The notes beneath the pieces were generated by a model. That model did no database searches and was not told the origin of the DNA. It saw nothing but the letters and a program-made list of their open reading frames with translations. The position numbers and the translations under genes were made by a program. Source: Gammaproteobacteria bacterium UBA6940 (lineage in GTDB: Bacteria; Pseudomonadota; Gammaproteobacteria; Pseudomonadales; UBA6940). From it: a stretch of 64,000 bases of DNA. The DNA lies in NCBI GenBank assembly GCA_002450655.1, contig DJZY01000064.1:1-64000 (forward strand). Reading direction: 5' to 3'. Below, piece by piece: positions 1,570 through 12,855 of the stretch (positions are counted from its first letter, which is position 1; each line of letters begins with the position of its first letter).

Positions 1570-2805
1570 TTAAGGCACGTCTTTCAGATTATGTAGACGG
1601 CTTTCATGACCAACCCAGTGAGATAATATTTCAGCAATTTTATGTGGTGTAATTGGCTTTGAAATCACATCGTCCATGCCGCTTTGCAGGCAAAGTTGAA
1701 TATCGTCATCAAGCGTATTTGCTGTAACTGCAATAATCGGTAGGGTAGCTTTACGCTCTTGCCTTAACATTTCGACAGCTTCAAAGCCATTCATAACTGG
1801 CATTTGGCAATCCATAAAAATAAGGGCTGGTTCCGTCTTATCATAACTTGCAATCGCTTCTTGGCCATTTGTTGCGGTTTTAATTTCAAAACCTAAACGT
1901 CTTGCTATAGCGCTTAGAATATTGCGATTAATTTGATTATCATCAACCACTAATATCGGCTTGCTTGTATTTTGAATAAATGGATTGTTAGCTTTGATAG
2001 AGCGCTCAGGGCGTAAGTAGAGCGACTGTCTATGAGTTGGGAAACCCATTCTAATCGTTGCGGTTGTCCCTTTTCCAAGCTCAGAGTTTATGTCGAAATG
2101 ACCTGACATGAGTTTGATCATACGCTGGCATAACATAAGGCTTAAGCCGTCTGATGTATTATCGCCATGAAAAAAGTCAGTGTATTGTGAAAATGGCTCG
2201 AATACCTTGTTAAGATGACTTTCTGTCATACCTCGACCAGAATCAATCACTTGAATTTGTAGTGCAACGTTGGCGGGGCCTTCTTCTAAGCAATCTACAA
2301 CAATTTCAATCGCACCTGTATCTGTGTATTCGACAGCATTAAAAAGCAGAGTATCAAGTATTTTATAAAGCTTATCTTTGTCACCAACCACTGCTGTTAG
2401 TTTATCAGCTGGGTAATTCCAGGCTATTTTCATGGCAATATTTGATTTCTGTTTTTCACGTAAATGCTGCTGAGCAAGGATCAGGCGCTGATTTAAAAGC
2501 TTAGATAAATTAAATTCAGTTCTATTAACACGAGCGGTATTTGATACATAAGAGTCCAAGGTAACAAGCTGTTCTAACAAGTGATTAATATGTTGCGCTT
2601 GATATAGCCCTGTATAGAGCTCTTGCAGTGCCTTTGGGTTTTCAATGAGATCTTGCAGCTCAGTTAAAATATGAAATAATGCATTGGAAGGTGTTTTAAG
2701 CTCATGGCTAATATGATGTAGAAAAGCCTGGTGAGCAGATTTAAGGGATTGATTTTCTTGCTTTAATTGTGCTATTTCAGCTTGTAGTTCTTCTAATGTT
2801 TTCAT
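1570..2805 (-). CDS. Cytoplasmic hybrid sensor histidine kinase / response regulator. No TM or sensor domain. N-terminal coiled coil.
   Basis: H-box 'HISHELKTP'. HATPase G-boxes ('DSGRGM', 'GLSLMLCQRMIKLMSG'). C-terminal receiver 'ILVVDDNQINRNIL...MDCQMPVMNGFEA'. Confidence 0.85.
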   Translation of the reverse strand: MKTLEELQAEIAQLKQENQSLKSAHQAFLHHISHELKTPSNALFHILTELQDLIENPKALQELYTGLYQAQHINHLLEQLVTLDSYVSNTARVNRTEFNLSKLLNQRLILAQQHLREKQKSNIAMKIAWNYPADKLTAVVGDKDKLYKILDTLLFNAVEYTDTGAIEIVVDCLEEGPANVALQIQVIDSGRGMTESHLNKVFEPFSQYTDFFHGDNTSDGLSLMLCQRMIKLMSGHFDINSELGKGTTATIRMGFPTHRQSLYLRPERSIKANNPFIQNTSKPILVVDDNQINRNILSAIARRLGFEIKTATNGQEAIASYDKTEPALIFMDCQMPVMNGFEAVEMLRQERKATLPIIAVTANTLDDDIQLCLQSGMDDVISKPITPHKIAEILSHWVGHESRLHNLKDVP

Positions 2806-2981: not shown

Positions 2982-3926
2982 ATGAGTAATGGCAGAGGTG
3001 CTCACCAAGATCGTAAAGAGCCATCCTTATCATCACTGGCTGATTTAGATGCCATGCCAAGTGAGCAGAGTGATCGAGTTAATAGTCGCTCAACTGCAAC
3101 ACCAGCAAAATCAGTAAAACCTGCTGTAGCTGCTAAGCCTGCAAAAACAGCAGGTCTCTGGTTTTTTATGACGGTTGCTCTAGGTGGGTTAGTAGCAGTT
3201 GCTGGTTACGGCTATATGGAATTGCAACGTTTAAAGGGTATGCAACGAAATATGGTTGAGCAGGTGAGTCAGTTGGCCCTAGCATCTGATGAAATCGGCA
3301 GTCAATTAAACGCATCAGGTGGTAAGCTGAAAGAGACTCAAACCACCTTAAACTCTCGAGTTGAAAAAATTGAAGCGAATATGGCATCACAACTAAAGTC
3401 AGTTAATGATGCAAGTCAAGCGAATAAAAAAGTTATGGGTGACTTAGAGTCGCAATTACAATCAAGTATTGCTGCCCAAGAGAAAAAAGTAGAGCAGCTT
3501 GAAAACAGCCTAGCGAAAACCATTGATTCGAAGGTGAGTTCAAGTGTTGCAAGTGTGCAAAAGCAGTCTGATCAACAAGCAAAAAATATTGCAGCAATTG
3601 AAGCGAGTATTAAAACGCTTCAAGCCAATATTGATAAAGTGAATAGTCGTATTGCAAGTGAAACTCAAAACCTTCAGCAGTCAATGGCATTGATGGAAGA
3701 AGAGTTAATGAATGCGCCCAATCCAACTGTGAAGAAACTGCAAGATCAGTTTGCTACATATATTCAGTCAGTGGATCAGTTTAGACAACAGACAAATTCA
3801 AGCTTAAATGAACTAAGCAGTGAAGTGAGACAACTGAGAAACTCTCAATCCCAATCTTCATCAAATAACTCAGGTTATTCAGATCCATATGGTGATTCTG
3901 GCTTTGGTGTGCAGCCTGCACGCTAG
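2982..3926 (+). CDS. Membrane-anchored coiled-coil protein (single TM, then Gln/Ser-rich extended helix)
   Basis: TM 'GLWFFMTVALGGLVAVAGYGYM'. Then ~230 aa of heptad-like Q/S/K-rich sequence. Good ATG with an upstream AGGAAA. Confidence 0.55.
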   Translation: MSNGRGAHQDRKEPSLSSLADLDAMPSEQSDRVNSRSTATPAKSVKPAVAAKPAKTAGLWFFMTVALGGLVAVAGYGYMELQRLKGMQRNMVEQVSQLALASDEIGSQLNASGGKLKETQTTLNSRVEKIEANMASQLKSVNDASQANKKVMGDLESQLQSSIAAQEKKVEQLENSLAKTIDSKVSSSVASVQKQSDQQAKNIAAIEASIKTLQANIDKVNSRIASETQNLQQSMALMEEELMNAPNPTVKKLQDQFATYIQSVDQFRQQTNSSLNELSSEVRQLRNSQSQSSSNNSGYSDPYGDSGFGVQPAR

Positions 3927-3996: not shown

Positions 3997-4875
3997 TTAA
4001 GGTAAAATTTGAGTGCCGAAACCATCTTCCGTAAAGAGTTCGAGGAGAAGGGCGTGAGGAATACGGCCATCTACGATTTGAACACTCTTAACACCTTCAT
4101 GAAGTGCATTTAATGCGCATTCAATTTTAGGTAGCATCCCACCAGAAATCGTTCCGTCTGCAATGAGATCATTCACTTGTTGCTTATTAACTCGCTGGAT
4201 AAGCTCCATTTTCTTATCAAGTACACCACGTGTATTTGTAAGAATAAGAAGCTTAGATGCTTGTAGAGCAGCAGCAATACTTGAAGCTGCAGTATCTGCG
4301 TTAATATTAAAGCGCTCACCATTAGGGCCAGAACCAACAGGCGCAATAACTGGAATAATATTATTGTTTAGAAGTTTGGTGATGAGCTTTGTATTAACAC
4401 CCGTTACTTTACCAACGTAGCCATAATCAATGCCATCAGAACTCTCAAGCTTCTCTGCTTGGATTGTTTGGCCATCAACACCAGTAATACCAATAGCTGT
4501 ACCTGAGTTATTTTGAATAAGTTGAACAATTTCTTTGTTGACTTTGCCACCGAGAACCATTTCAACAACTTCCATTGTTCTTTTATCAGTGACACGGATG
4601 CCATTAATGAACTCTGTTCCAAGATTAAGTGCTTTAAGACAAGCACCAATTTGAGGGCCGCCGCCATGAACAACAACGGGTTGCATGCCAACAAGCTTAA
4701 GAAGAACAACATCACGAGCAAAAGAGTTTTTTAACTCTTCTTCTGTCATTGCGTTGCCACCATATTTGACCACGCAGATTTGGCCAGCAAAGCGTTGAAT
4801 ATAAGGCAGGGCCTGTGTCAGGACTTTGGCAACTTCTTGAGAGTCGGGGAGAGGCATAGTTTGATCACTTATCAT
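3997..4875 (-). CDS. argB: N-acetylglutamate kinase
   Basis: 292 aa. 'VVKYGGNAM', 'VVVHGGGPQI', 'NINADTAA' amino-acid-kinase motifs. Confidence 0.9.
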   Translation of the reverse strand: MISDQTMPLPDSQEVAKVLTQALPYIQRFAGQICVVKYGGNAMTEEELKNSFARDVVLLKLVGMQPVVVHGGGPQIGACLKALNLGTEFINGIRVTDKRTMEVVEMVLGGKVNKEIVQLIQNNSGTAIGITGVDGQTIQAEKLESSDGIDYGYVGKVTGVNTKLITKLLNNNIIPVIAPVGSGPNGERFNINADTAASSIAAALQASKLLILTNTRGVLDKKMELIQRVNKQQVNDLIADGTISGGMLPKIECALNALHEGVKSVQIVDGRIPHALLLELFTEDGFGTQILP

Positions 4876-5273: not shown

Positions 5274-7877
5274 TTAGAAATCGATCTTAACGTCTGGTGC
5301 TACAGCAAGTAGGTTCTCGCGGAACATACCTTTAATCATCTGAATAACTTCTTCGTTATCAGCTTCAAATCGAGCAACAAGAACAGGCGTAGTATTTGAC
5401 GCACGAAGTAGGCCCCAGCCTTTTTCGAAATCAACACGAACACCATCGATTTGATTCACAGAGCCATTACCAAATTGGCCTTTCTCTGCTAGATCTGCAA
5501 CGATCTTGAATTTAGATTCGTCAGTTACATGAACATGAAGCTCTGGCGTAGATACTTTTTCTGGATACTTATCAAGAAGTGTATCAAGGTCATCTGTTGT
5601 GCTTGAAAGAATTTCAAGAAGACGAGCTGCTGCATAAATTGCATCATCAAAGCCGTTCCAGCGATCATTGAAGAAGATGTGACCACTCATTTCACCAGCA
5701 AGTGGCGCATTTGTTTCTTTAAGTTTCGCTTTGATAAGAGAGTGACCTGTTTTCCACATAAGAGGGCGGCCGCCAGCATTGCGAATAACTTGTGTAAGAT
5801 CAGAAGAGCATTTCACATCATAGATGATATCTGCGCCTGGGTTTGCAGCAAGTACGTGCTCAGAGAAAAGCATCATCAGTCTGTCTGCGTACACCATTCG
5901 ACCTGATGGTGTAATAACGCCAACACGGTCACCGTCGCCATCAAATGCAAGACCAATATCAGCGCCTTGTTCTTTAACAACTTCAATCAGTTTAACCATG
6001 TTTTTTGGTTGAGAAGGGTCTGGAGAATGGTTAGGGAAAGAGCCATCGACTTCAGTGTAAAGACCTGAAGCTTCAACACCAAGCTGTTCGAACAGCTGAG
6101 GCATCATGACACCTGTTACACCGTTACCACAATCAACTGCGATTTTAAGTGCTCTGGAAAGAACAATATCACCAATAAGATCGCCTTGGTAATCATCCAT
6201 AACGTCTTTTTCAAGAACTTGGCCAGTGCCCTTAGCAAGGTTGCCATCTTGAATACGGTTATAAAGATCTTGAATTGTATCACCGTAAAGTGTTTTACCA
6301 GCGATCATAATTTTAAGACCGTTGTAGTTAGATGGGTTATGGCTGCCTGTTAGCATTACACCAGTACCTTGAGTCAGCTTCTTCGCTGCATAGTAAAGAA
6401 CAGGTGTTGGAACCATACCGATATCAATAACGATAACGCCAGATTTTTTAAGACCTTTACGTAGGGCTTTAATAAGAGCAGGGCCTGATAGACGACCATC
6501 GCGAGCAACAGTAACTTCACGTACACCTGCGTCAATTGCAGCGGAACCGATTGCACGGCCGATAGATTCGACAACTGATTCGCTTAGCTCTGTAGGGTAG
6601 ATACCACGGATGTCGTAAGCACGGAAAATACTTTGAGATATTGGTGTTTCTGTTGATTCTGTTGCAGCTTCAGTTTCTGGCTGCTCAATTTCTTGGACCT
6701 CTAACTCTTTAGATTGGTCTAAAGTTTCCATTGCGTAACGCTCCCGGGAATAAGTTGGTTTTTTTGTTTTTACAGATTCTGCGTCAGATTCTTGATTGTT
6801 AAATAAGGAATCTGACATCAACTCAGAACTCTGTTGTAAATTCGAACCGCCCGTAATAGTGGCAGTGTTTTTGAGGTTATCATAAATATTCTCGTAAGTG
6901 TCAGCGATGTGTTTCAATTGGAATCGCTCTTTTCCAGGATTCTTACCACGGAAAAGATCAATCATTGCATCCCTAACCATTTCGAGATCATGGCTCAAGG
7001 CCCTATTATATAGCGAAGCAGCGATGATTAAAGCGACAACATTCAAAATTCCAAGGCCAATTGCAGTAAAAATGATCAAAAATTCATCAAAAAAGCCTTT
7101 CTGTACTTTATTTATCCACTGTGCTTTTAAACGGAGTACGTCATGAAATTTCTTATCGTAAGTGATAGCTTTATTAGGCACCCAGCCGGAATACTGGTAA
7201 ACCACGGTTTCAGACTGGTCGATTGCTTGTAGAACTTGCACTGCAACATGACCTTGAAGAATGGACGCGGATTCGGCGAACGCCTCATCTTTAGTCACTG
7301 CTGCGGTTAGCGCACCGAGGACATCTCCTGTATTTGACTTAATTTGAGCAGTCACATAAAGAAGCTCGCCTTCAATTTCGATAGTTGTACTACCAGAGCG
7401 TGTCGCATTGAAGGCATTATTGATCATGATAAAAGTAATAGCAGGTGAGAAGTTTGGATTAGGTCTGTGATTACCACGAGGGAATACAATAATGTTCTCA
7501 AGGTTTGTTTCACCTGATGCTGATAAAGGCATAGAGTCTGGCTTTTCAAGAGTAGAAACTTTAGCTCTGACGCTATTGAGTTTCGCTAAGCTTTCCACTT
7601 CTAAGGCCAAGGCATCAAGATGAGCATCGAGCTGGGTTTTATACTGCTCTAAAACTTGCTCATTCTTTTCATTGAAACTTGCTAAACGCTCTGGCTGAAT
7701 CTGCTGAGCAAAGATAATGTAAGCCAGTAATACTGGCAGTAAGAAGACGACAACTGCTGTAGGGGTAAAGTAGGCCCAGAAGTTATTACTTTTACCTGAG
7801 TTTTTTTTTGTCGTGCTACTTTTGCTACTGGTTTTTGCTGCTTTTGCTTTCTTGCCCTTAGACTTTTTCGGTGCCAT
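5274..7877 (-). CDS. Phosphomannomutase/phosphoglucomutase (C-terminal ~460 aa) fused to an N-terminal ~400-aa module: Lys-rich tail, TM1, ~230-aa periplasmic domain, TM2, acidic linker
   Basis: The C-terminal half has 'TGSHNPSNYNGLK', 'GLAFDGDGDRV', 'AGEMSGHIFF' alpha-D-phosphohexomutase motifs. The N-terminus has two predicted TM helices (VVVFLLPVLLAYIIF, FLIIFTAIGLGILNVVALIIAASLY). A single uninterrupted 867-codon frame in AT-rich DNA. Confidence 0.85.
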   Translation of the reverse strand: MAPKKSKGKKAKAAKTSSKSSTTKKNSGKSNNFWAYFTPTAVVVFLLPVLLAYIIFAQQIQPERLASFNEKNEQVLEQYKTQLDAHLDALALEVESLAKLNSVRAKVSTLEKPDSMPLSASGETNLENIIVFPRGNHRPNPNFSPAITFIMINNAFNATRSGSTTIEIEGELLYVTAQIKSNTGDVLGALTAAVTKDEAFAESASILQGHVAVQVLQAIDQSETVVYQYSGWVPNKAITYDKKFHDVLRLKAQWINKVQKGFFDEFLIIFTAIGLGILNVVALIIAASLYNRALSHDLEMVRDAMIDLFRGKNPGKERFQLKHIADTYENIYDNLKNTATITGGSNLQQSSELMSDSLFNNQESDAESVKTKKPTYSRERYAMETLDQSKELEVQEIEQPETEAATESTETPISQSIFRAYDIRGIYPTELSESVVESIGRAIGSAAIDAGVREVTVARDGRLSGPALIKALRKGLKKSGVIVIDIGMVPTPVLYYAAKKLTQGTGVMLTGSHNPSNYNGLKIMIAGKTLYGDTIQDLYNRIQDGNLAKGTGQVLEKDVMDDYQGDLIGDIVLSRALKIAVDCGNGVTGVMMPQLFEQLGVEASGLYTEVDGSFPNHSPDPSQPKNMVKLIEVVKEQGADIGLAFDGDGDRVGVITPSGRMVYADRLMMLFSEHVLAANPGADIIYDVKCSSDLTQVIRNAGGRPLMWKTGHSLIKAKLKETNAPLAGEMSGHIFFNDRWNGFDDAIYAAARLLEILSSTTDDLDTLLDKYPEKVSTPELHVHVTDESKFKIVADLAEKGQFGNGSVNQIDGVRVDFEKGWGLLRASNTTPVLVARFEADNEEVIQMIKGMFRENLLAVAPDVKIDF

Positions 7878-8083
7878 AGGTCATTCCTTCGAAGTTAAGA
7901 TCTTTGAAACATGTATTGAGGTTGAAACTGTTCGATGCGGTCGAATTTGACGCAGTTTTTTTTAGTTTAGTTGATATTACAATAACTTCTAGCTCGTTTT
8001 AGAAAGACATTTGCGAGCAATAACGGTACTTTGAATGTATAAAATGAGGAGAGTTTGAAGGTTGTTGTTTTAAGGGAAAAAAG

Positions 8084-8116
8084 CCCCTTTATTACAAGGG
8101 TTATAACAAAGGGGCT
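8084..8116 (-). terminator. Rho-independent terminator for coaBC
   Basis: Minus strand: agcccctttgttataacccttgtaataaaggggc + T6. Confidence 0.7.
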
Positions 8117-8125
8117 GATATAAAA

Positions 8126-9397
8126 TTACAACTGAGCAAGTGCTGCAATAATGGATTGAGCCAATACTGCTTTAGGTGCTTTGGCTAAAGAAAAGATATC
8201 ACTTGTTCGAGTGCTGATAAGGCTGATTTCATTGTTTGGCGAGTTAAAGCCAATGGATTTATCGCTCACATCATTCGCACAAATCAGATCAAGCCCTTTT
8301 TTCACGAGCTTCTTTTGTGCGTAGCTAATCACATCATGAGTTTGAGCAGCGAAACCCACTTTAATTGCTTGAGGGTTAGCATCACTTAAAGCGGCAATAA
8401 TATCTCTGTTTTCGACCAGCTGAATCGATTGCTCTAAGTCTTGCTTACTCAGCTTTTTATCGCCAGAATTGGCTGGTCTAAAGTCTGATACTGCAGCAGT
8501 ACCAATAATAATGTCATAACCAGTTTTACTGAGGCATGCTTCAAGCATATCCTGTGCTGATTCCACATATTGACCTTGAACACTCTGGGGCCAAGTGCAA
8601 TGGCTTGGGCCACTAATTAAAGTAACTGTTGCACCTGCATCTGCTGCAGCTTGTGCGAGGCAATAGCCCATAAGCCCAGAAGAATGGTTGGAAATAAAGC
8701 GAACAGGGTCAATTGGCTCACGAGTTGGGCCAGCTGTAATTAAGACTGTTTTACCTGCAAGCACCTGTGGTGTCAGTAGACGTTGTGCATGTTGAAATAA
8801 GACTTGAGGTTCTTGTGCGCGGCCTGGACCAACATCGCCACAAGCTTGAGCGCCTTCTGCAGGTTCAATAATATGAACACCATCTTCTTTTAACTGTCGT
8901 AGGTTACGTTGAGTTGCAGGGTGCTTCCACATTTGTTGGTTCATGGCAGGTGCAATAACAACAGGTGCAGTTGTGGCCAGTACAAGTGTGCCAAGTAAAT
9001 CATCAGCAAGACCTTGTGCAAACCGAGCCATTTGATTTGCGGTGCAAGGGGAAACAAAAATAAGGTCAGCCCATTTGGCTAACTCAATATGCCCCATACC
9101 AGCTTCAGCGCTGGAGTCTAATAAATGTACATGAGGTTCATGACCTGTTAAAGCTTGAAAAGCCAACGGTTGTATAAAGGCAAGAGCACCTTCTGTCATC
9201 ACCACACGAACTTGAGCACCGGCTTTTATGAGGAGGCGGCAAAGCTCAAGGCTTTTATAACAGGCAATCCCACCAGTTACGCCAAGTAAAATACGTTTGT
9301 TTTGAAGTCGAGATTGACCAGCTTGCAATATAGCTTGGGCATTCCACTGAAAATCTGTTGAACTCATACTTTTGTCCTTCTTTGAGACATCAGTCAC
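8126..9397 (-). CDS. coaBC: Bifunctional phosphopantothenoylcysteine decarboxylase / phosphopantothenate-cysteine ligase
   Basis: 423 aa. N-terminal flavoprotein '[12 protein letters not shown]'. C-terminal CoaB '[22 protein letters not shown]'. Confidence 0.9.
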
Positions 9398-10791: not shown

Positions 10792-12855
10792 ATGTTATCC
10801 ACCACTAGCGTTATCTCAAGTCAATTTAGTTCTGATTATGAAGTTCTATCCCAAAGCAACCAGTCTTTCGAGTTCGTCACCCGCAGCGTTTTAGCGCAAT
10901 CATTTAAACCTTTACGAGAAATTCCTGAACAGAGTTTGCTTAATAATATTCTTGAAATTAAACCTGAACATCAGACTGCACATAACCTTTTGACAACTCA
11001 TGAGGGGTTTCAAGAGATCCTATCAGCTTCAGAGCTCTTTAATAAAATGGGAGAGGCGCGAAGTGAAACGCAAGAGTTGCAGATGTATGAGTCTCACGTC
11101 AGTATACGAGCACTTGATGGTGATGCAAAAGATGTTGCTATTCAAGAAGCCCTAGACCAGCGAGCTGCAGTCTTAGTCAATGAGCAAGGGCAAGAAGCAC
11201 CGTTTAAAGCGATTGATGCAAATCAAATTGCCGATGAAATGATTAAGCACATTTTACATGATGGTGTAACCAGCGTTCACCCAGAGCTTGACGAACATTC
11301 TCTTGAATCTCTTGTACTCGATTCTGCAGAAATGGCTGCAAGTATTCATAACGAGTTTGCATTGGTTGAAGGTGTGCAAAACTACATCTTAACAAAATTA
11401 ACGGATATCCATCACGCTCACTTTTTAAATGACGTGCCATGGACTGAAGACGCCCAGAAAAGTGCGGTCGACGCCATGATTGAAGGCTTATCGGCAAAAG
11501 GTGCTGAGAGCAGTAGTGATCCAAGTGCGGTCAGCGAATTACAGTCCTTCGTTTCAAATCTGCCTGCAAATTACACAGTATCAAATCAAGGTAGTTATTT
11601 TAAAGCACGTAAATCTCAGTCAAATGAAACAGGGCTAGCACGACTTGATGCTACACAAATTAAGACTGCAAAAGGTGATGTGTATGAGTTGTTGAGTACG
11701 CTCACGGATCACCAAAAGTTTATGGTTGAGCAATTAACAAAAGCAGAGCTTGTGTATAGTTCTAAGTTTGTGAGAGGCTTTCAGGTTTTGTTGGCTCAAT
11801 ATCAGAATAAAGGCGATCAATCTTCAATTAAGTTTCATGATACGAGCTTGATGAGAAGGCTGATGAGGTCTCTCGATAAAGAGCAAAAAAGCAAACTTGG
11901 CACTTTAGATGGTTCATATGAGAAAGATAAACGAGCTGTACAACGTTTACTTCATTCTTTAGATAGCTCACAAATTGAGGCTGTAGAAAAGTTAACACAT
12001 ATTAAAGCAGAAAAAAATAAAGTACTAATAGGGCAAGGCGCATATGGTACTGTGCGCCTTGCTCGTAATGTTGAAACAGGTAAACTTTTTGTTATTAAAA
12101 AAATGCTTGACCGTAGTGCTGCTGAGCATGAAATTAAAAGTAATAATCTTGTTGGTGACGGTGCGCATTTTGTTACAGCAATAGATCACGCTCATGTTAA
12201 AACATCATGTTTTAATGGTGACTCTGTCGATAAATCCTATTTAATATTCCCGTATTATGATGCTGGTGATGGTGCACACATGATGTACAACCTGCAGCAG
12301 TTGAAAAACCAGAATCCTCAATCTGGTGAAATGAAACAAAAATTTATAGCCTATACGCTGTTAAGTGCTGTTGATGATTTGCATCAGCGAGACTTAGTTC
12401 ATCGTGATATAAAACCAGAAAATTTACTTTTTTCTTCTGAAGGTGCTATTGGACTTTCTGACTTCGGTTTAGCAGAAAATGACCACAACCCATATCGAAA
12501 CAAAGAAGCTGGAACACCAGGGTATTTGCCACCAGAGTTTGGTACTCAAAATTATACTGGCAAAGGGCATGACCTCTATTCAGCAGGTATGGCGATGTTG
12601 GAATTTGCGACAGGCCAATATATTGAAGAAGGTAAGACTATTAACCTCAAAGTGAATGGTCAAGATATCCCTTTATCCTTTAATGGGCCATTAATGCTTT
12701 GCAATGGTATAGACCCTAAAGTGCTTAAAAGTAAACTGCATTTTAACTCGTACAATGAAGTTATTGCTGGTCTGCTGGTAACAAATAGCGCTGCGCGTAT
12801 AGATGCAAAAAAAGCAAAAGCTTCACCTTACTTTGCTGACTTTAACGCCCTCTAA
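10792..12855 (+). CDS. Eukaryotic-like Ser/Thr protein kinase (LegK-like). ~400-aa N-terminal non-kinase region plus C-terminal kinase domain.
   Basis: 'IGQGAYGTV' G-loop, 'VIKKM', 'HRDIKPENLLF', 'DFGLAE', 'GTPGYLPPEF'. Confidence 0.8.
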   Translation: MLSTTSVISSQFSSDYEVLSQSNQSFEFVTRSVLAQSFKPLREIPEQSLLNNILEIKPEHQTAHNLLTTHEGFQEILSASELFNKMGEARSETQELQMYESHVSIRALDGDAKDVAIQEALDQRAAVLVNEQGQEAPFKAIDANQIADEMIKHILHDGVTSVHPELDEHSLESLVLDSAEMAASIHNEFALVEGVQNYILTKLTDIHHAHFLNDVPWTEDAQKSAVDAMIEGLSAKGAESSSDPSAVSELQSFVSNLPANYTVSNQGSYFKARKSQSNETGLARLDATQIKTAKGDVYELLSTLTDHQKFMVEQLTKAELVYSSKFVRGFQVLLAQYQNKGDQSSIKFHDTSLMRRLMRSLDKEQKSKLGTLDGSYEKDKRAVQRLLHSLDSSQIEAVEKLTHIKAEKNKVLIGQGAYGTVRLARNVETGKLFVIKKMLDRSAAEHEIKSNNLVGDGAHFVTAIDHAHVKTSCFNGDSVDKSYLIFPYYDAGDGAHMMYNLQQLKNQNPQSGEMKQKFIAYTLLSAVDDLHQRDLVHRDIKPENLLFSSEGAIGLSDFGLAENDHNPYRNKEAGTPGYLPPEFGTQNYTGKGHDLYSAGMAMLEFATGQYIEEGKTINLKVNGQDIPLSFNGPLMLCNGIDPKVLKSKLHFNSYNEVIAGLLVTNSAARIDAKKAKASPYFADFNAL

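Follow-up and report, generated by a model that had tools for sequence, protein, structure and literature searches.

Does an uninterrupted open reading frame (ORF) of 2604 nt, in which a sugar-phosphate mutase is preceded by two hydrophobic segments and some 200 residues between them, represent one gene or two genes accidentally joined, and if it is one gene, what would such a membrane module do for the enzyme? The question is raised by positions 5274-7877, minus strand, of contig DJZY01000064.1 (assembly GCA_002450655.1, Gammaproteobacteria bacterium UBA6940), whose first 64,000 nucleotides were analysed and are referred to below as the window. We consider it very probable that this is one gene for a membrane-anchored, long-form phosphomannomutase/phosphoglucomutase (PMM/PGM) of the AlgC type. 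The architecture was already described in 2019, when Qian, Fei and Galperin reported proteins in which a flexible linker joins a PMM to two transmembrane segments (TMs) and a periplasmic dCache domain of ~200 amino acids (aa), for which KinD and DctB are the closest matches (10.1101/589796); the query is a divergent, mis-annotated member of that known long-AlgC family. A first-pass annotation of the window had taken AlgC/ManB enzymes to be normally soluble, and the fusion hence to be unusual, a view that is outdated given that the membrane-anchored form is widespread, occurring in at least eight gammaproteobacterial orders and including the AlgC of Pseudomonas aeruginosa (10.1101/589796).

One frame of 867 codons

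The frame and the parts into which it resolves are as follows.

5274-7877, minus strand: complete algC-long ORF, 867 codons plus stop, ATG start, uninterrupted frame
7885-7889, minus strand: Shine-Dalgarno (SD)-like AAGGA, 7 nt 5' of ATG 7877-7875
7782-7877, minus strand: aa 1-32, Lys-rich tail, putatively cytoplasmic (11 K, 0 D/E), predicted disordered
7707-7781, minus strand: aa 33-57, TM1 (Kyte-Doolittle 19-residue maximum 2.46; AlphaFold2 (AF2) helix 33-98)
7095-7706, minus strand: aa 58-261, putative periplasmic dCache-like domain with a long helix, a distal alpha/beta module and a reduced proximal module
7008-7094, minus strand: aa 262-290, TM2 (Kyte-Doolittle 19-residue maximum 2.74; AF2 helix 262-309)
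6858-7007, minus strand: aa 291-340, juxtamembrane helix-loop-helix, putatively cytoplasmic, including the near-invariant D297
6639-6857, minus strand: aa 341-413, disordered acidic linker, net charge -10, 59% S/T/Q/N/P/E
6729-6745, minus strand: candidate internal start, GGGAG (6741-6745), 9 nt, ATG of Met383 (6729-6731)
5277-6638, minus strand: aa 414-867, AlgC-type alpha-D-phosphohexomutase (PMM/PGM) catalytic domain
6342-6344 and 5928-5942, minus strand: Ser512 codon and metal loop D646-D650

By Kyte-Doolittle hydropathy over 19 residues, the 867-aa protein has two strongly hydrophobic segments and no more, aa 33-57 and 262-290, and because the first 32 residues hold 11 Lys and no acidic residue, the N terminus is predicted to lie inside. 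The single 867-codon frame and the order of its parts (tail, TM1, extracytoplasmic domain, TM2, linker, PMM/PGM) had been proposed in the first-pass annotation and are borne out by the ORF, hydropathy, Pfam and the AF2 model, with adjusted boundaries: the extracytoplasmic domain spans ~204 aa (58-261) and not ~230, and of what had been taken for a ~100-aa acidic linker the acidic, disordered stretch is present (~73 aa, 341-413), while the first ~50 aa (291-340) form a structured helix-loop-helix. That such a frame would hardly arise by chance, as had also been supposed, agrees with arithmetic from composition, by which 413 stop-free codons at ~41% GC have P ~5e-12.

The source is a metagenome-assembled genome (MAG), and the N-terminal part stands as a separate ORF in two low-coverage metagenome contigs, L013 and L014, so that a missed indel might have joined a membrane-protein gene to a standard pmm. 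However, the full 2604-nt frame is 100% identical in three MAG assemblies (GCA_002721025.1, GCA_003501545.1 and GCA_003527795.1), and L009, a contig from another sample that encodes protein P0002, differs from it by 23 substitutions and zero indels. Relatives colinear over 99-100% of the query are likewise encoded in one frame (P0003, 61% identity, 853 aa; P0004, 58%, 877 aa; P0005, 49%, 885 aa; P0006, 41%, 879 aa), as is every orthologue. The only 'split' versions found are those in L013 (2.4x coverage) and L014 (4.5x), each cut by one in-frame stop with no change of frame; the TGA site of L013 is a Trp in L014 and the stop site of L014 is a Glu in L013. These are not separate genes in another frame, and the interruptions are either sequencing errors or pseudogenes. 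The two-gene alternative allowed for in the first-pass annotation, split orthologues with an indel between them, is thus not what the data hold: orthologues retain the single-frame fusion (long forms make up 113 of the 120 best homologues) and the independent assemblies are free of indels. Since the frame is identical in three assemblies, indel-free in a second strain and single in relatives at 41-61% identity, we regard an assembly or sequencing artefact as vanishingly unlikely. The regions in question (L013 1454-3640 and L014 614-1483) are distant homologues of long PMMs, and L013 lacks the FRAYD residues at the enzyme start.

A search with the full-length protein returned 113 homologues of 711-975 aa among the best 120. 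Full-length homologues share one layout, TM1, ~200 aa, TM2, ~100-135 aa and then the enzyme start F-R-A-Y-D-I-R-G, and a few N-terminally truncated entries (such as P0016, P0095, P0109 and P0117) have no TM1. Among the homologues are the Metapseudomonas resinovorans protein named AlgC (864 aa) and proteins from Marinobacter, Pseudomonas, Halopseudomonas, Permianibacter and Kangiellaceae. When GTDB genomes were searched with the clade alignment (A2) there was no match, and with the full protein only distant PMMs from Chloroflexi and Veillonellaceae were matched; a metagenome scan recovered only the P0003 and P0005 lineages that were already known.

The surroundings of the gene are conserved as well.

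8082-8116, minus strand: terminator-like hairpin 3' of coaBC
8126-9397, minus strand: coaBC (Flavoprotein and DFP), conserved upstream neighbour
3997-4875, minus strand: argB (AA_kinase), conserved downstream neighbour

The order coaBC-algC-argB, all on one strand, is found in the query, L004/5, L006/7, L008 and L009, and the divergent radC at the locus is also present in L004-L007 and L009. Long-AlgC genes are known to sit in coaBC-dut-algC-argB clusters (10.1101/589796). There is no dut anywhere in the 64-kb window, nor between coaBC and algC in the query clade; in the distant homologues L013 and L014 it lies directly upstream. Because a terminator-like hairpin follows coaBC, algC may have a promoter region of its own at 7878-8081.

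All three MAG records annotate the gene only as a 485-aa short form that starts at Met383 ('MAG TPA: phosphomannomutase/phosphoglucomutase [Gammaproteobacteria bacterium]'), and leave ~1.4 kb between coaBC and the called start (window 6732-8125; L001 8607-10000) without any annotated gene, 1.15 kb of which is conserved coding sequence. It might be argued that the annotation is right, and that the preceding 1.15 kb is either a leader that is not translated or a remnant in decay. The N-terminal part does change freely, with 6 non-synonymous against 5 synonymous codon changes between the query and L009 (0 against 11 in the PMM domain), and it has been lost in some Pseudomonas species (10.1101/589796). 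Against this stand the minute probability of 413 chance stop-free codons given above, the retention of the frame across five divergent lineages and in more than 100 homologues, the unusual length that 1.15 kb would have as a gap without a gene, and an AF2 model in which the region would be a confidently folded domain. An SD-like motif (AAGGA or GGAGAG) also precedes the long start in 5 of the 5 loci examined, at an equivalent position in L004, L006, L008 and L010, and its conservation lends indirect support to translation of the full-length form. A gene for the short form alone therefore seems to us very improbable.

The periplasmic domain and the juxtamembrane hairpin

The N-terminal half is hardly visible to ordinary searches. 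Pfam reports nothing above threshold in aa 1-413, and a word-index search with the N-terminal part alone matched only the NCBI short form of the same gene. When aa 30-345 were compared exhaustively by phmmer with 1.8 billion cluster representatives, one match emerged (E 3.7e-4), an 872-aa protein that is 24% identical and colinear over aa 28-340. Profiles were needed since pairwise searches barely detect this domain. A hidden Markov model (HMM) built from six close N-terminal regions recovered 79 of the 109 N-terminal regions of long homologues in its first round and all 109 in its second, and an hhalign comparison of the periplasmic segments without their TMs, query clade against 16 named proteins (from Pseudomonas, Marinobacter, Halopseudomonas, Permianibacter and Kangiellaceae), gave a probability of 95.7% (E 9e-9), with 182 of 205 columns aligned at 14% identity. 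These comparisons argue that the N-terminal module is homologous to that of recognised long-AlgC members.

An AF2 model of the N-terminal module, from a 28-sequence alignment, has a predicted local distance difference test (pLDDT) score of 85.6. Its periplasmic part consists of a helix that extends TM1, a five-stranded alpha/beta module, a connecting helix and a four-stranded membrane-proximal module, after which the TM2 helix runs to residue 309 and is followed by a loop and a second helix (322-341). The structural neighbours of the periplasmic domain are all ligand-binding sensor domains. Pfam dCache_1 (PF02743) is the commonest weak match in the family (10 of 28 members, best E 1.3e-5), and the query itself scores 13.4 bits (E 0.058) where the gathering threshold is 45 bits. 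As modelled, the domain would belong to the dCache (double PAS-like) fold superfamily while falling outside the Pfam dCache_1 family, in keeping with the published view of it as a dCache family in its own right (10.1101/589796), and the first-pass description of the topology as 'sensor-like' finds its counterpart in this confidently modelled fold.

Conservation is low in the periplasmic domain, with a mean of ~1.5 bits per position as against 3.2 in the enzyme. In the N-terminal half, family-wide conservation reaches 90% or more at only two positions, Q217 (7229), in the membrane-proximal periplasmic module, and D297 (6989), eight residues past TM2. Two further family residues, G230 and W248 (~86-89% conserved), are Ser and Leu in the query. 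In the distal module the motif F-I-M-I-N-N-A-F-N-A-T-R-S-G is conserved within the query's own small clade. Used as a profile by itself, the periplasmic domain matched five short proteins made up of the N-terminal part only and did not recover the known long PMMs, so that the search is uninformative as to whether the domain is exclusive to PMMs; two of the five, those of L013 and L014, were examined and are the ORFs ended by in-frame stops.

The helix-loop-helix that follows TM2 was considered as a HAMP transmitter and rejected: HAMP (PF00672) gave no match at E <= 1 in any of the 28 N-terminal regions, and aa 291-340 resemble it only in the helix-loop-helix shape of the AF2 model.

The enzyme, its tether and a candidate internal start

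The C-terminal half is a canonical enzyme. Pfam places PGM_PMM_I-IV at aa 417-853 (E 2e-31 to 1e-12), NCBIfam returns only PMM/PGM-type models that are confined to this half, and the motifs TGSHNP, GDGDR and MSGH (the last within GEMSGH) are present as first read. In the alignment with P. aeruginosa PMM/PGM (PDB 1K35; E 2.5e-166), aa 413-865 match its residues 9-461 gaplessly, with Ser512 equivalent to Ser108 and D646/D648/D650 to D242/D244/D246. Across 105 aligned homologues there is no variation at Ser512, D646/D648/D650, R651, E729/S731/H733 or R825/S827/N828/T829. AlgC-type PMM/PGMs employ phosphoserine/Mg2+ mutase chemistry, and since the catalytic residues of the P. aeruginosa enzyme are completely conserved, catalysis would be expected to proceed through the usual phospho-Ser512/Mg2+ mechanism. 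The Xanthomonas short-type enzyme matches the catalytic domain at E 3e-60 (vs 2.5e-166 for P. aeruginosa AlgC); by these E-values, and by the 113 long proteins among the 120 best matches, the domain appears to belong to the 'long' clade rather than to the short XanA/ManB one.

Between the membrane and the enzyme lies a tether. The full-length AF2 model (pLDDT 83) is confident for aa 34-340 and 414-867 and disordered at aa 1-29 and 341-408, and in the latter stretch pLDDT lies below 50 and its mean over 10-residue blocks stays at 26-46, with no local rise that would hint at a docked motif. An acidic linker motif, P-L-F-Q-x-x-D-x-L-D-I-D-M-L-D-x-D-x-D-x-L-G, is common to most Marinobacter- and Pseudomonas-type long PMMs (P0007-P0010, P0018, P0027, P0035-P0043 and others in alignment A3), of which the query has a degenerate version, S-L-F-N-N-Q (SDSLFNNQESD, window ~6790-6820).

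From these parts we propose the following arrangement. The Lys-rich tail would be cytoplasmic, TM1 would lead outward to a periplasmic dCache-type domain and TM2 back inward, where a short helical hairpin in the cytoplasm would be followed by an acidic, disordered tether of ~70 residues and by a four-domain PMM/PGM held at the inner face of the membrane. The enzyme would interconvert the 6-phosphates and 1-phosphates of mannose or glucose through a bisphosphate intermediate, its output presumably feeding the precursor pools of lipopolysaccharide (LPS) and exopolysaccharide. The N-terminal module most likely places the enzyme at the membrane and may bind a periplasmic small molecule. Regulation by an extracytoplasmic signal, as suggested in the first-pass annotation, is a hypothesis that has also been published for this family. 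Classical transmembrane allostery is unlikely on the modelled structure, because a disordered tether of ~70 residues cannot carry a piston or rotation movement and because PMMs act as monomers (10.1101/589796). Given the disordered connection, helix-borne allostery is a less probable route for any effect of a ligand than clustering, local concentration or partner binding would be, and we hold localisation, ligand-dependent clustering and partner binding via the conserved juxtamembrane hairpin to be the more plausible roles.

It may even be that no ligand acts on the enzyme at all, and that the dCache-TM module serves only to localise or assemble the PMM/PGM beside membrane-bound glycan-assembly machinery. 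The disorder of the ~68-residue tether with its uniformly low pLDDT (26-46) and lack of a docking signal, the failure to detect a HAMP or coiled-coil transmitter, the activity of PMMs as monomers (10.1101/589796) and the poor conservation of the periplasmic domain relative to the enzyme would all suit a plain anchor. A plain anchor, however, would have no need of the folded 200-aa domain that more than 100 lineages have retained, nor would it account for the near-invariance of Q217 and of D297 in the cytoplasmic hairpin, for the conserved, clade-specific motifs of the distal module, or for structural neighbours that are ligand-binding sensors without exception. We consider anchoring without ligand control of activity rather unlikely, and retain a module that localises the enzyme and putatively senses.

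A further proposal complements this reading of the gene and does not compete with it: translation, and possibly transcription, may also begin at Met383 and yield a soluble 485-aa PMM/PGM. The candidate ribosome-binding site, GGGAG, lies exactly 9 nt 5' of the ATG, is the sole GGGAG on the sense strand of the ORF, and is formed by the ORF's only CGG codon (CGG makes up 2.9% of the 586 Arg codons in the window). GGGAG-N9-ATG recurs in the orthologues L004 and L010, again as the sole GGGAG of each ORF and within an otherwise variable linker; yet CGG is not rare in either of them (12.8% and 18.8%), L008 has no such site, and L006 retains the peptide FSRExxxM with its Arg encoded by AGA, which destroys GGGAG. 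Since L006 keeps the peptide motif without the GGGAG, the conservation may be at the level of the protein. (F/Y-S-R-E-x-x-x-M, window 6729-6760, is conserved in the linker of the query clade, and GGGAG with its 9-nt spacing occurs in 3 of 4 lineages.) The NCBI pipeline chose Met383 as the start, a Met is found 3-45 residues before the catalytic domain in 90 of 113 long homologues, at clade-specific positions, and several annotated short forms begin at such a Met, although by our estimate a Met would be expected by chance in a 43-residue window of ~58% of proteins. The short forms annotated from Marinobacter sp. NFXS9 and Zooshikella start at a Met inside the acidic linker motif described above. 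In P. aeruginosa the mapped transcription start of algC falls within the long ORF (PMC4064291), and RNA-seq suggests extra starts (10.1101/589796). Against internal transcription, a sigma-70 promoter scan gave no excess over shuffle expectation (4 found vs 7.3 expected), the match at 6917-6888 being the only promoter-like one upstream, and the P. aeruginosa AlgR-box pattern has one match in the window, distant from the gene and at chance level. On these grounds a second isoform is possible, though we lean slightly against it.

It is tempting to join the two ideas, such that a clade-conserved internal ribosome-binding site and ATG383 would make a cytosolic PMM/PGM beside the tethered one, with the dCache domain working mainly through ligand-dependent clustering or placement and not through allostery. 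We think this joint reading doubtful. If true, the supply of hexose 1-phosphate would be split between a soluble and a membrane-localised pool.

Several observations weigh against a membrane-anchored long-form AlgC, and should be set beside the evidence for it. The N-terminal part alone found but a single match (E 3.7e-4) in an exhaustive search, and the query falls far under the Pfam dCache_1 cut-off (13.4 vs 45 bits). Evolution is much faster in the N-terminal part than in the enzyme, with 6 non-synonymous changes vs 0 in a near-identical strain. NCBI annotates the 485-aa short form only, in all three MAG records, and the locus lacks dut, a member of the conserved cluster as published. Lastly, a monomeric PMM on what is modelled as a disordered tether leaves a route from a dCache signal to the active site hard to see.

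The locus and known systems

Some other features of the region may be noted. Adjacent to radC, a 687-aa protein (10792-12855, plus strand) carries a eukaryotic-type Ser/Thr kinase domain (Pkinase) in its C-terminal half; it is not at the equivalent position in L004, L006 or L008. Downstream of argB lie a 411-aa protein with HATPase_c and response-regulator domains (1570-2805, minus strand) and a 314-aa coiled-coil membrane protein with a weak DUF1664 match (2982-3926, plus strand), and in L004-L007 the HATPase_c/REC gene is likewise a few genes 3' of argB. Just outside window position 1, the source contig has an insertion sequence (IS)-type transposase made up of two DDE_Tnp_1/DUF4096 ORFs (L001 16749-17502). 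No second PMM gene was found within the 64-kb window, and no Rfam family matched in it.

As the architecture was known, only the candidate internal start and the argument from the disordered tether go beyond the literature. AlgC has been studied structurally and enzymologically as the truncated 463-aa protein, and the long form is little known. To this the locus adds a further case of systematic mis-annotation (485 aa called, ~1.15 kb of coding sequence left out); a strongly diverged sensor-domain sub-clade that has a distal-module motif of its own and is useful for inferring the binding pocket comparatively; the structural argument that a disordered tether of ~70 residues disfavours helix-borne signalling; and an internal-start hypothesis that is open to testing. 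The questions raised are those already posed by Pseudomonas and Lysobacter, and both of these are much easier to work on.

The closest comparison is with the named long members, Lysobacter enzymogenes Le2152 (772 aa), P. aeruginosa PA5322/PA14_70270 (868 aa) and the long PMMs of Xanthomonas and Stenotrophomonas. In L. enzymogenes the full-length protein is expressed, and the gene is required for twitching motility; the periplasmic domain of the family is regarded as a new dCache family, and its genes are often annotated as truncated short forms (10.1101/589796). Like these proteins, the query has a short tail predicted to be cytoplasmic, TM1, a dCache-like region of ~200 aa, TM2 and, after a flexible linker, a PMM of ~450 aa, as well as coaBC upstream, argB downstream and a short-form annotation, and its catalytic domain is closest to that of P. 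aeruginosa AlgC. Judged from its sequence, it agrees with long AlgC in every feature that could be compared, dut excepted, since its locus has none between coaBC and algC. It differs in that its periplasmic domain is only ~14% identical to those of the named members, with F-I-M-I-N-N-A-F-N-A-T-R-S-G where the family motif is FAxLDLxRRAExG; its linker is acidic and Ser/Thr/Gln-rich whereas that of Le2152 is Pro-rich; and its host is an uncultured marine gammaproteobacterium.

The crystallised P. aeruginosa PMM/PGM (463 aa; PDB 1K35, 1P5D and others) has Ser108, D242/D244/D246, R247, E325, S327 and R421/S423/N424/T425, all conserved in the query, but has no counterpart to the 400-residue membrane module; the Met with which it starts falls at query position 405, where there is no Met, the nearest in-frame Met being 383. 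The short XanA/ManB-type PMM/PGMs (Xanthomonas citri, PDB 6NN2/5BMN) share the four-domain alpha-D-phosphohexomutase fold and chemistry, yet are much more distant (E 3e-60 vs 2.5e-166) and have no membrane module, and their genes lie in a different neighbourhood, with xanB/cpsB (10.1101/589796). To the dCache sensors of histidine kinases and chemoreceptors (Bacillus subtilis KinD, 4JGO/4JGP; Vibrio cholerae DctB, 3BY9; P. aeruginosa PctA/PctC; V. cholerae CqsR) the query shows an identity of only 9-14%. In those proteins the output is a dimeric kinase, a methyl-accepting chemotaxis protein (MCP) or a GGDEF domain reached through continuous helices, whereas in the query it would be a monomeric metabolic enzyme on a disordered tether.

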